NCBI GenBank assembly: GCA_016926055.1
Contig: JAFGPE010000046.1
Coordinates: 1-33,752, forward strand
Direction: 5' to 3'
Source: Candidatus Woesearchaeota archaeon
GTDB taxonomy: Archaea; Nanobdellota; Nanobdellia; Woesearchaeales; JAADFO01
DNA length: 33,752 bases
Shown here: positions 7,543 to 9,066 of the stretch, in pieces
Position numbering within the stretch: the first letter of the stretch is position 1
How the letters are laid out: every line of letters starts with the position of its first letter
Notes under the pieces: model-generated
The model's database searches: none
Told to the model about the DNA's origin: nothing
What the model saw: only the letters and a program-made list of their open reading frames with translations
Translations under genes and position numbers: made by a program

Positions 7543-7550
7543 TTTTTAAA
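7543..7550 (+). promoter_or_regulatory. TATA box of the first tRNA-Leu locus
   Basis: TTTTTAAA about 24 nt upstream of 7574, the start of the duplicated tRNA 5' end. Confidence 0.55.
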
Positions 7551-7573
7551 ACAGAGTTAATTCTCCTTGCATC

Positions 7574-7628
7574 GAGGGGATGCCGGAGAACATCTGGCGT
7601 TCCGGCGCCGGTGTCTGGACTGGCCAAA
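7574..7628 (+). repeat. Duplicated tRNA-Leu 5' fragment containing a 32-nt BHB-type intron (7589-7620) at position 15/16
   Basis: GAGGGGATGCCGGAG[insert]TGGCCAAA equals the first 23 nt of the tRNA at 7631 with one mismatch. Helix CCGG(7583-86)/CTGG(7615-18), bulges AG^A and AC^T, inner stem ACATC/GGTGT. Confidence 0.75.
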
Positions 7629-7630
7629 AT

Positions 7631-7794
7631 GCGGGGATGCCGGAGTGGCCAAACGGGATAGATTTCCGACGTCAAGGCGCTAGAAAATCCAAACTCAAGT
7701 TATTGAGTGATGAGGTCCTAAAAGGATCGATGAAATGCTCTATGGGCCATCTATTGGCTTAGTGCCTACGGGGGTTCAAATCCTCCTCCCCGCA
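7631..7794 (+). tRNA. tRNA-Leu(CAA) with two introns: 7662-7692 (30/31) and 7700-7748 (37/38)
   Basis: Acceptor GCGGGGA/TCCCCGC with A73, long variable arm, T-arm GGGGG-TTCAAAT-CCTCC. Intron 1 BHB: GGAT/ATCC, bulges AG^A and AA^A, inner TTTC/GAAA. Intron 2 BHB: CTCA/TGGG, bulges AG^T and CC^A. Spliced arm is ATAGA-CTCAAGA-TCTAT. Confidence 0.88.
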
Positions 7795-7815
7795 TATTTT
7801 TAATTTCCTAGAAAG

Positions 7816-7823
7816 TTATATAA
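7816..7823 (+). promoter_or_regulatory. BRE/TATA promoter for the structured leader and LAGLIDADG gene
   Basis: GAAAG-TTATATAA, predicting a start near 7847-7850. Confidence 0.55.
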
Positions 7824-7857
7824 ACAAATCTTTAACTATTTTTTGTTATCAACGATA

Positions 7858-7955
7858 TGTCAAAAACCACCGGTCAAAGACCAGCGGCATGTTGCTTCGT
7901 AAGCGACAGAAGATGTAATGGTTTTTGACACCTCGGAATTCTACGAATGACCGGT
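7858..7955 (+). ncRNA. Structured leader or element upstream of the LAGLIDADG gene
   Basis: Perfect 12-bp IR TGTCAAAAACCA(7858-69)/TGGTTTTTGACA(7919-30) enclosing hairpins GGTC-AAA-GACC and TGTTGCTT-CGT-AAGCGACA. Additional 8-bp pairing ACCGGTCA(7869-76)/TGACCGGT(7948-55). Confidence 0.65.
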
Positions 7956-7962
7956 AGTTTAA

Positions 7963-8724
7963 ATGAATAGTCAAAAAATAGAAAATAAAGATTTGTTAAT
8001 CAATTCGGAAATTGCTGAACTCTTAGGTGTGTTTATAGGAGATGGCTGGATTGAAAGGGATAAAGACGCACTTTACATAACTGGAAGCCAAACTGAAGAT
8101 AAAGATTATTATGATTATCACCTAGGACCATTATTTTCTAAGCATTTCTCAAAGGTAACTCCTAAGCAATTTGATTATTGGGGAGTTTATGGAATTGTAA
8201 CCTATAAAAAAGAAGCCATTAACAAAGCAATAAACCTCGATTTCCAAGTGGGACGCAAGTCTTTAGTTACAAAAATTCCTCGATACATAATGGATGCAGA
8301 AAATAAAGATATTTTTAAAGCTATTTTAAGGGGTTTATTTGATACAGATGGTTGTTTTTGGTGTGAAAAGTCAAGAGCTAAAACATCTACAAAATGGAAA
8401 AGAACACACAATTATCATCCTGAACTGAGGATTACTTCGTGTTCCAAGATGTTATTAGAGCAAGTTCATTGCTTATTAGACAGACTAGATATTGATTCTA
8501 AGGTTATTCAAAAAAGCAGAAGGGGTTTCAAAAGCGGAAGAAACGTACATGATTCTTACGCTTTGAATATCAGAAAGATTGAGGAAATTGAAAAATGGTT
8601 CAAGATTATTGGAACTAATAACCCCCGACATAAAACAAGATGTGGTGTCTGGAAGAAACTCGGTTATTTGCCATCAAACACAACAATGGAGATGAGGAAA
8701 AAGTTGTTAAACGTTAATAGGTGA
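7963..8724 (+). CDS. Free-standing two-motif LAGLIDADG (DOD-type) homing endonuclease
   Basis: Motifs AELLGVFIGDG and AILRGLFDTDG, both with the terminal acidic residue. No intein splicing blocks. Visibly more AT-rich than flanking housekeeping genes. Confidence 0.9.
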   Translation: MNSQKIENKDLLINSEIAELLGVFIGDGWIERDKDALYITGSQTEDKDYYDYHLGPLFSKHFSKVTPKQFDYWGVYGIVTYKKEAINKAINLDFQVGRKSLVTKIPRYIMDAENKDIFKAILRGLFDTDGCFWCEKSRAKTSTKWKRTHNYHPELRITSCSKMLLEQVHCLLDRLDIDSKVIQKSRRGFKSGRNVHDSYALNIRKIEEIEKWFKIIGTNNPRHKTRCGVWKKLGYLPSNTTMEMRKKLLNVNR

Positions 8725-8827
8725 GGTCCCATCCCCTCAGTTTACGAATGGGATGAATTAATCATTGTTTCCCGTTAAACTGGGCCATTGAAAATAGAGG
8801 ACAAGAAATTTTTTAAGCAATAATTAT

Positions 8828-8835
8828 TTAAATAA
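8828..8835 (+). promoter_or_regulatory. TATA box of the second tRNA-Leu locus
   Basis: TTTAAATA about 25 nt upstream of 8860. TTAATTCTC lies just before the duplicated 5' end at both tRNA loci. Confidence 0.55.
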
Positions 8836-8859
8836 AACCGAAACACTATTAATTCTCTT

Positions 8860-8922
8860 GCGAGGATGCCGGTAGTGGAAATCTGTGATTTCCGGACCGT
8901 CATCTTCTCAACCCGAAGGTCT
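8860..8922 (+). repeat. Duplicated tRNA-Leu 5' end (13 nt) followed by a structured insert
   Basis: GCGAGGATGCCGG at 8860-8872 is identical to 8923-8935. It is followed by hairpin GGAAATC-TGT-GATTTCC, then CCGGAC, and CATCTTC complementary to GAGGATG. Confidence 0.7.
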
Positions 8923-9025
8923 GCGAGGATGCCGGAGCGGCCAATGACAGAAATGTCGGCCATACGGGCTAGGTTCAGGGCCTAGTGGCTTAGTGCCTAC
9001 GGGGGTTCGAATCCCCTTTCTCGCA
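8923..9025 (+). tRNA. tRNA-Leu(CAG) with a 19-nt D-loop intron (8945-8963)
   Basis: Acceptor GCGAGGA/TTCTCGC with A73; anticodon arm CTAGG-TTCAGGG-CCTAG. Intron motif is helix GGCC/GGCC, bulges AA^T and AT^A, inner GACA-GAAA-TGTC. Splicing restores GGCCAAACGG as in the first tRNA. A T-run follows. Confidence 0.93.
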
Positions 9026-9066
9026 TTTTTTCTTTAGTAACCTATTTAAATAAGTATAAACTCTAG

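Follow-up and report, generated by a model that had tools for sequence, protein, structure and literature searches.

A free-standing LAGLIDADG endonuclease gene beside tRNA-Leu genes of a Woesearchaeota archaeon is probably cargo of a cassette that lands in tRNA genes

The window, as we call the whole stretch of DNA analysed here, is the 33,752-nt contig C96 (33.7 kb; GenBank JAFGPE010000046.1) of a Candidatus Woesearchaeota archaeon, whose genome assembly spans 1.62 Mb and is 86% complete. On its plus strand it carries a free-standing gene for a two-domain LAGLIDADG endonuclease of 253 amino acids (7963-8724), which lies between two tRNA-Leu genes. Sequence comparison with related loci suggests that this gene is probably the cargo of a selfish cassette that lands in tRNA genes. 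The tRNA gene would probably be the homing site, and the partial copies of tRNA 5' ends found upstream of both tRNA-Leu genes are probably insertion scars. An initial annotation had described the layout as two intron-bearing tRNA-Leu genes with promoters and 5' duplicates and, between them, a nuclease gene outside any intron or intein; all of these elements are present. Its interpretation, in which the enzyme cuts intron-less tRNA-Leu alleles and small introns shield the host copies, was partly supported.

The gene was compared with 110 non-redundant related loci, which came from species-representative genomes, from 201 genomes of the same order and from metagenome contigs; the metagenome scan was queried with a single protein and contributed three loci only. 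The set spans DPANN archaea and bacteria of the candidate phyla radiation (CPR; L071, L073, L074, L078 and L080), and one locus, L102, derives from the unpublished genome G121. tRNA genes were detected with Rfam and with a custom finder built on the T arm and acceptor stem. This finder is blind to tRNAs with an intron in the T loop, so that those of L004, L005, L007, L010 and L124 were recognised by eye only, and it gave four false hits in the host genome, judged by eye. Typing of intron-bearing tRNAs by ARAGORN -i was unreliable and was excluded from the tRNA identities.

In 53 of the 110 loci, the 5' end of a same-strand tRNA gene lay between 120 nt before and 100 nt after the stop of the endonuclease open reading frame (ORF), and the stop codon was often inside the tRNA; the other downstream 220-nt bins held 0-2 tRNAs each. 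Convergent tRNA genes occupied the same bin in 13 further loci (14 tRNAs), and in 12 loci a tRNA on the same strand lay no more than 200 nt upstream of the ORF. In total, the automatic finder placed an abutting or overlapping tRNA gene at no fewer than 76 of the 110 loci (at least 76/110), and seven more tRNA-adjacent loci were recognised by eye or motif search (L004, L005, L007, L010, L124, L016 and L017). Many of the adjacent tRNAs were confirmed by Rfam. The enrichment of homologs next to tRNA genes, which the initial annotation had proposed as a check, was thus found. The partner tRNA varied between subfamilies. In the subgroup of the window (>50% identity, 15 other loci), a same-strand tRNA-Leu(CAA), often intron-rich, stood upstream of the gene in 14 of 15 loci, and the contig of the fifteenth ends 42 nt upstream of the gene. 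In the next-closest group (L011-L014, 37-41% identity), tRNA-Leu(CAA) follows directly downstream, with the ORF stop codon within it.

Three pairs of genomes, each pair from a single genus, provided occupied and empty versions of a site: G069/G171, G173/G076 and G145/G017. Between G069 and G171, whose flanks are 84-85% identical, ~754 nt are inserted after tRNA nucleotide 16 with a duplication of 16-18 nt; the occupied and empty alleles are collinear, and this holds for the intron too. In the second pair, the flanks are 86-91% identical, the insertion measures ~929 nt and the left scar in G173 equals the empty allele at 15/15 positions; on the right-hand side of the ORF stands a diverged tRNA allele whose acceptor stem is the same, and the empty allele of G076 is likewise collinear, intron included. 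In both of these pairs the insert follows tRNA nucleotide 15-16 and the tRNA 5' end is duplicated. The duplication is missing from the empty alleles and so comes with the insertion; the initial annotation had ascribed the 5' duplications to repair cycles. The third pair belongs to the window subgroup: ~853 nt separate the 3' end of tRNA-Leu(CAA) from the next gene in G145, and 8 nt do so in G017. The intron sets of these two tRNAs differ (30/31 in G145; 15/16 and 37/38 in G017). The inserts in the pairs, at ~750-930 nt, consist of a leader and the LAGLIDADG gene as the only ORF. G105, from the same genus as G191, gave tRNA-fragment matches only and no syntenic empty site, and contigs from sequencing runs at 90% likeness were mostly tRNA-Leu genes of other organisms, with sides of the joint of only 26-34 nt, which makes them uninformative for this locus.

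The distribution of the gene is patchy. Across the order, 51 of the 201 genomes had a match at E≤1e-20 and seven at E<1e-100, and neither of the two other genomes of the same family had one, despite 68-70% PyrB identity to the host. Presence or absence at a fixed site, combined with such a distribution, is the behaviour of a homing endonuclease gene, and these observations support the mobility that the initial annotation had assumed.

Scars of the kind seen in the pairs recur at other loci. Where a tRNA lies downstream of the ORF (54 loci), its first 14 nt recur upstream of the ORF, with ≤3 mismatches, in eight cases, as compared to one of 54 controls (Fisher p 0.03). In L027, L046, L052, L080, L096 and L097 the 5' copy lies directly behind a promoter and breaks off after about nucleotide 15-16; Rfam detected no full tRNA at these upstream-copy sites. 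The two copies of L097 are identical at 16/16 positions, and its ORF starts 6 nt past the first copy. L086 and L089, which belong to the window subgroup, present the mirror image: the reading frame continues into a tRNA-Leu 3' fragment beginning with nucleotide 38, whose acceptor strand is unlike that of the complete tRNA upstream.

In the window itself, fragments of a tRNA were found on both sides of the endonuclease gene. A partial tRNA-Leu 5' end (GAGGGGATGCCGGAG, 7574-7588) lies upstream of tRNA-Leu(CAA) and matches the start of that gene at 14/15 positions, with two mismatches over the 16 nt scanned. A TATA-like box (TTTTTAAAA, 7544-7552; this and the other boxes of the window were read visually) is located ~25 nt upstream of this copy and not of the tRNA gene. 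Directly behind the ORF, a degenerate 3' tRNA remnant (GGTCCCATCCCCTCA, 8725-8739) comprises the 3' strand of a T stem, the acceptor 3' strand TCCCCTC and a discriminator A, and resembles the 3' end of the tRNA-Leu of L089. The acceptor strand GAGGGGA of the upstream copy pairs with TCCCCTC at 8732-8738, not with the 3' strand of the present gene. TCCCCTCA, the exact complement of GAGGGGA together with the discriminator A, is found a single time on the plus strand of the window, 8 nt past the ORF stop, where ~0.0004 occurrences are expected in 30 nt. The two fragments are probably the 5' and 3' ends of an older tRNA-Leu gene, and because they are complementary, the sequence between them (7589-8724) can be read as a cassette inside the remains of that gene.

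A second 5' copy lies downstream of the ORF, where positions 8860-8872 are identical at 13/13 positions to nucleotides 1-13 of tRNA-Leu(CAG) and follow another TATA-like box by ~25 nt (TTTAAATA, 8827-8834). The same placement of a TATA box ~25 nt before the 5' copy recurs in L046, L052 and L096 and at a tRNA-Glu gene on host contig C74. This tRNA-Glu(UUC) gene (C74:2169-2401) has an exact 14-nt copy of its 5' end 158 nt upstream, right behind the TATA-like box, and a non-coding spacer of 144 nt; the architecture is that of both tRNA-Leu genes, with no endonuclease gene nearby. The spacers between 5' copy and gene at tRNA-Leu(CAA) (x1, 7589-7630) and tRNA-Leu(CAG) (x2, 8873-8922) are single-copy, and neither these nor the tRNA-Glu spacer had other copies in the genome. 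A LAGLIDADG coding remnant was sought in the three spacers, and none was found (best 0.8 bits). A separate observation concerns L115 (contig C30 of G099, minus strand), a genome without the endonuclease gene, where a direct repeat of ~47 nt, made of the 3' end of tRNA-Leu(CAG) and a T-rich trailer, lies just downstream of that tRNA with ~70 nt between the repeats, as a 3' counterpart of the 5' duplications in the window.

These observations suggest how such a cassette might work. In the commonest layout, the 5' type, the order is promoter, first 15-16 nt of the resident tRNA, conserved leader with its own TATA box, ORF and complete tRNA, the end of the ORF often overlapping the complete gene. 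By this reading, the cassette would interrupt the resident tRNA gene around the D loop and bring along a working replacement copy, which RNase P could free from its long leader. RNase P RNA is present in the host genome (108 bits), so that long leaders could be removed without splicing. In the 3' type, represented by the window subgroup, the endonuclease gene sits behind a complete tRNA-Leu(CAA); in the window, spacer, new two-intron tRNA-Leu(CAA) and endonuclease gene (7589-8724) would lie within the ends of the older tRNA-Leu (7574-7588 and 8725-8739). The enzyme would cut the resident tRNA allele, and in the repair the cassette would be copied along with the tRNA allele that it carries and the introns of that allele. 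Immunity would be due to the differing sequence of the incoming tRNA, an intron being just one form that such a difference could take. Introns could thus travel with the tRNA allele of the cassette, as the differing intron sets of G145 and G017 hint.

Several points weigh against the cassette interpretation. At tRNA-Leu(CAG) and at the tRNA-Glu gene on C74, just 50-144 nt lie between the 5' copy and the gene, and they show no remnant of an endonuclease gene; these copies may have some other origin. The tie between 5' duplicate and nuclease drawn in the initial annotation does not hold for the tRNA-Glu copy, which is on a different contig and nowhere near the nuclease gene. With p 0.03 the scar statistic is modest, and it was obtained from mutually related loci. 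LAGLIDADG enzymes usually cut with a 4-nt stagger, and a duplication of 16-19 nt would not be the product expected from it. The regenerated tRNA of G069 differs from the exons of the empty allele by one D-loop base, which leaves self-immunity unexplained. Between families, the endonucleases are 55-66% identical, equal to or above the value for PyrB (43-59%), which would also fit a conserved host function. Finally, a dispersed repeat (7854-7960) interrupts the leader of the window gene, and this endonuclease copy may therefore be poorly expressed or inactive.

The assignment of the gene product is based on profile matches and on a structural model. The ORF matched Pfam LAGLIDADG_3 (PF14528, E 6.8e-11) and PF00961 (E 1.3e-4). 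In an alignment of 31 homologs, which are of constant length and share 35-70% identity, D27 of motif 1 (...FIGDGWIE) is kept in ≥90% and D129 of motif 2 (...LFDTDG) is invariant. The AlphaFold2 model (predicted local distance difference test score 94.5, predicted template modelling score 0.91) has the pseudo-dimeric alpha-beta-beta-alpha-beta-beta-alpha fold, and its best Foldseek matches in the PDB were I-Tsp061I (E 1.7e-9) and I-DmoI (~3e-7), followed by intein endonucleases; the Foldseek probability was 1.00 for I-Tsp061I, I-DmoI, PI-SceI and PI-PfuI. A sequence search against solved structures gave marginal intein matches only, and in NCBIfam only sub-threshold, intein-bearing models matched. 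The protein is thus predicted to be a single-chain LAGLIDADG homing endonuclease. At E≤1e-3, 139 database proteins matched it, and cluster representatives gave 1222 matches at that threshold and 23 at E≤1e-30. In its own genome the ORF is the sole full match, and two weak matches fall within frames of 1109 and 877 amino acids, which are probably inteins.

The ORF lies 168 nt past the 3' end of tRNA-Leu(CAA) and 198 nt before tRNA-Leu(CAG), outside any tRNA, intron or intein, and so not within a bulge-helix-bulge (BHB) intron of its target, the position of intron-encoded archaeal homing endonucleases. Which codon starts the ORF is uncertain: in several homologs the protein begins where residue 11 stands here (TTG at 7993), and within this region (7958-7995) the sequence TTTAAAT at 7958-7964, a possible TATA box, overlaps the annotated ATG. 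The neighbouring genes are coiled-coil ORFs and pyrB/pyrI, and no integrase was found among them.

The initial annotation had favoured collaborative homing, in which the enzyme cuts intron-less tRNA-Leu and BHB introns interrupt the site, protect the host copies and spread together with the gene. Inserts are indeed more frequent in the adjacent archaeal tRNAs than in the other tRNAs of the same loci (43/72 vs 11/30; Fisher p 0.049), an excess that goes in the direction foreseen and is weak, the loci being non-independent. It also fits this view that in the nuclease-less G099, tRNA-Leu(CAG) has neither intron nor 5' copy and tRNA-Leu(CAA) has the canonical intron only, that the 3' scars of L086 and L089 start exactly at the 37/38 splice site, and that the D-loop intron of tRNA-Leu(CAG) in the window is 8 nt from the boundary of its 5' copy. 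However, an intron-less tRNA-Leu(CAA) adjoins the gene in L011, L012 and L125, 29 of the 72 adjacent archaeal tRNAs are of intron-less length, and 16 of the 23 tRNAs accepted in the host genome have inserts regardless of position. The comparison with nuclease-less alleles, named beforehand as a test, also went against protection: the empty alleles of G171 and G076 keep the intron of the occupied ones, and G017, which is without the gene of this subgroup, has two introns in the same tRNA. We consider protective introns an unlikely explanation. Equally unlikely, in our view, is a domesticated host factor that, as in the case of WhiA or the LAGLIDADG maturases, has ceased to be a mobile nuclease and might, for example, bind DNA or RNA and assist or regulate the neighbouring tRNA. 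The well-conserved length of ~250 amino acids at 35-70% identity over many lineages, the single copy in the host genome, the identity comparable to or above that of PyrB, and the presence of the bI3 maturase and I-AniI among the structural matches would all suit such a role. Against it, both catalytic aspartates are retained, 150 of the 201 genomes of the order lack the gene, as do both other genomes of the family, occupied and empty sites occur within genera, and the partner tRNA differs between subfamilies.

Two other explanations address the tRNA fragments themselves. The upstream 5' copies might be the true first exons, so that the stretch through the second copy would be a non-canonical D-loop intron excised by the splicing endonuclease, and not a leader that RNase P cleaves off. 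The promoters are placed for a transcription start at the upstream copies, and L008 and G017 have a real 15/16 intron with one acceptor copy and, by visual reading, a palindromic CCGG central helix. However, if tRNA-Leu(CAG) were spliced at the CCGG helix, positions 14-15 would read UA and not AG, tRNA-Leu(CAA) would have an A2-G71 mismatch with the upstream acceptor strand, no second helix was seen beside the bulges (visual reading), the upstream copies of L046, L052 and L027 do not pair with the 3' acceptor strand, and RNase P RNA is present. These points make the first-exon explanation decidedly improbable. The fragments might instead be attachment-site scars of integrase-type elements, with the endonuclease gene merely located in a recombination hot spot, since tRNA genes are classic integration sites at which direct repeats are left (Williams 2002 and Reiter 1989, as cited in PMC9897764); the 47-nt direct repeat of the tRNA-Leu(CAG) 3' end in G099 would fit. 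Yet coiled-coil proteins and pyrB/pyrI, and no integrase, lie near the locus, the pair inserts of only ~750-930 nt hold a leader and the LAGLIDADG ORF, and a tRNA is adjacent in at least 76 of the 110 loci. We regard integrase scars as very improbable.

The two tRNA-Leu genes were the only tRNAs that the custom finder detected in the window, and ARAGORN with default settings detected none there. The tRNA-Leu(CAA) gene (7631-7794) scored 38.3 bits with Rfam, above the gathering score of 29, and the tRNA-Leu(CAG) gene (8923-9025) scored 38.4 bits. Intron boundaries and BHB helices in the window were read from the sequence by eye, with no dedicated program. By this reading, tRNA-Leu(CAA) has exons at 7631-7661, 7693-7699 and 7749-7794, interrupted by a 31-nt intron at position 30/31 (7662-7692, central helix GGAU:AUCC) and a 49-nt intron at the canonical 37/38 position (7700-7748, central helix CUCA:UGGG). 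tRNA-Leu(CAG) has exons at 8923-8944 and 8964-9025 and a 19-nt D-loop intron (8945-8963, GGCC:GGCC) whose 4-bp helix is capped by GAAA, forming the clean helix-bulge motif GGCC AA|U GACA GAAA UGUC GGCC AU|A. All three small inserts have a 4-bp central helix and two 3-nt bulges and restore a canonical tRNA when removed, in agreement with their earlier designation as BHB introns, two in tRNA-Leu(CAA) and one in tRNA-Leu(CAG). Intron removal gives class II tRNAs of 84 nt with normal D loops from both genes. The 5' copies were likewise considered as BHB introns, and this was rejected by visual reading, as no acceptable BHB motif formed.

Further features were observed in these introns and in those of relatives. 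The 37/38 intron of tRNA-Leu(CAA) contains the elements GAG(U/C)GAUGAGG ... CGAUGA ... CUC, which resemble a box C/D or K-turn motif and are also kept in L004, L086, L089, L123, L124 and the nuclease-less G099 (L115); the intron may contain an L7Ae-binding or methylation-guide element. In relatives, tRNA-Leu(CAA) has up to three or more introns, some of them in the T loop (L004, L005, L007 and L010); in L004 a full BHB is formed by the helices TTCA:TGAA and ATGTCC:GGGCGT. L008 and L145 (G017) have a D-loop intron at 15/16, approximately where the 5' copy of tRNA-Leu(CAA) ends in the window.

The region between tRNA-Leu(CAA) and the ORF contains a TATA-like box that is a candidate promoter of the endonuclease gene (TTATATAAA, 7816-7824), followed by what the initial annotation had called a structured leader. 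The folding was confirmed, in that 7846-7975 folds better than 200/200 shuffles (z -3.58), but the structured part proved to be a dispersed repeat of ~105 nt (7854-7960) with copies on three other contigs: C9:15691-15797 (86%), C57:11397-11499 (80%) and C40:6329-6396 (91%). The repeat has terminal inverted repeats (AAACCACCGGT...ACCGGTGGTTT) and an inner hairpin, is present at least four times in the genome, twice at the end of a contig, and gave no match in Rfam. It may represent either a miniature inverted-repeat element or a family of small RNA genes. Two candidates were dropped, both being inside this repeat: 7945-7966, taken for a degraded tRNA 5' copy resembling 8860-8883, and CCACCGGTCA at 7867, taken for the conserved CCACTGGNCA motif of the cassette. 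The cassettes of relatives share a common leader module across subfamilies, with its own TATA box. This leader is non-coding, 150-190 nt long, and has the order TCAACTATCAAATTATGATTT - CCACTGGNCA - TATA - AAATCATTTACNTAGTTTCAAC - GGTGATTTAAAATG; it is 72-76% identical in DNA across families (L096 1315-1505, L105, L103 and several places in G001, G002, G009 and G023) and occurs up to four times in one genome (G009).

Free-standing endonuclease ORFs of fungal mitochondria supply the host gene with a new end in place of the old one, which they displace. The cassette would resemble them in combining an endonuclease gene with a substitute for the target piece and leaving the old piece as a remnant, whereas their targets are organellar protein-coding genes and the targets here are tRNA genes of DPANN archaea and CPR bacteria; our literature search found no paper on these fungal ORFs. 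I-Tsp061I and I-DmoI share the single-chain fold with two LAGLIDADG domains, archaeal hosts and stable-RNA genes as setting, but are encoded within BHB introns of rRNA genes, whereas the ORF of the window is outside introns and next to a complete tRNA. To our knowledge, duplicated tRNA 5' or 3' ends have not been described as scars at SegB of phage T4. SegB is reported to be a free-standing homing endonuclease of the GIY-YIG family in a tRNA gene cluster; it is similar in that a free-standing endonuclease among tRNA genes drives preferential inheritance of the tRNA region, and different in nuclease family and phage setting (PMC2330249). In the collaborative or trans homing of mobE/I-TevIII in T4-like phages, a free-standing endonuclease is likewise reported to mobilise neighbouring DNA, including an intron in which it does not reside (PMC2790892). 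There, a group I intron interrupts the target, whereas here some tRNA neighbours are intron-less and empty alleles carry the same introns; an intron interrupting the target in every gene-bearing allele was not found, on the indirect evidence of L011, L012 and L125. Integrative elements that target tRNA genes (references in PMC9897764) are alike in inserting into a tRNA, restoring the gene with a copy brought by the element and leaving a partial tRNA direct repeat. Those elements have an integrase and are kilobases long, in contrast to <1 kb here, with the LAGLIDADG gene as the only ORF. The literature searched, in main texts without supplements and insofar as these were consulted (including PMC8172020, PMC7143001, PMC6125680 and PMC9897764), reports LAGLIDADG genes in rRNA introns and rRNA spacers and contained no description of such genes wedged at tRNA genes in DPANN or CPR.

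Taken together, the loci might represent a large undescribed class of tRNA-parasitising LAGLIDADG cassettes in DPANN and CPR, which would replace the resident tRNA with a carried allele, introns included; we offer this joint interpretation tentatively. The origin and movement of non-canonical archaeal tRNA introns are an open question, and the persistence of homing endonucleases outside introns and inteins is poorly understood. If the interpretation is true, tiny BHB introns would be mobile by hitch-hiking on the tRNA allele of a cassette, and scars of the form 5' copy, spacer, 5' copy could mature into D-loop introns where the D stem is palindromic (CCGG); L008 and G017, with their 15/16 intron and single acceptor copy, may be examples of this transition. 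The three occupied/empty pairs are concrete substrates for a cleavage test, and the family could supply many natural meganucleases with tRNA-gene specificities. Replacement of resident tRNA alleles, if it occurs in ultra-small archaea and bacteria, would explain why their tRNA intron patterns turn over rapidly, where the 5' and 3' tRNA fragments that confuse annotation come from, and part of their patchy tRNA gene structure.

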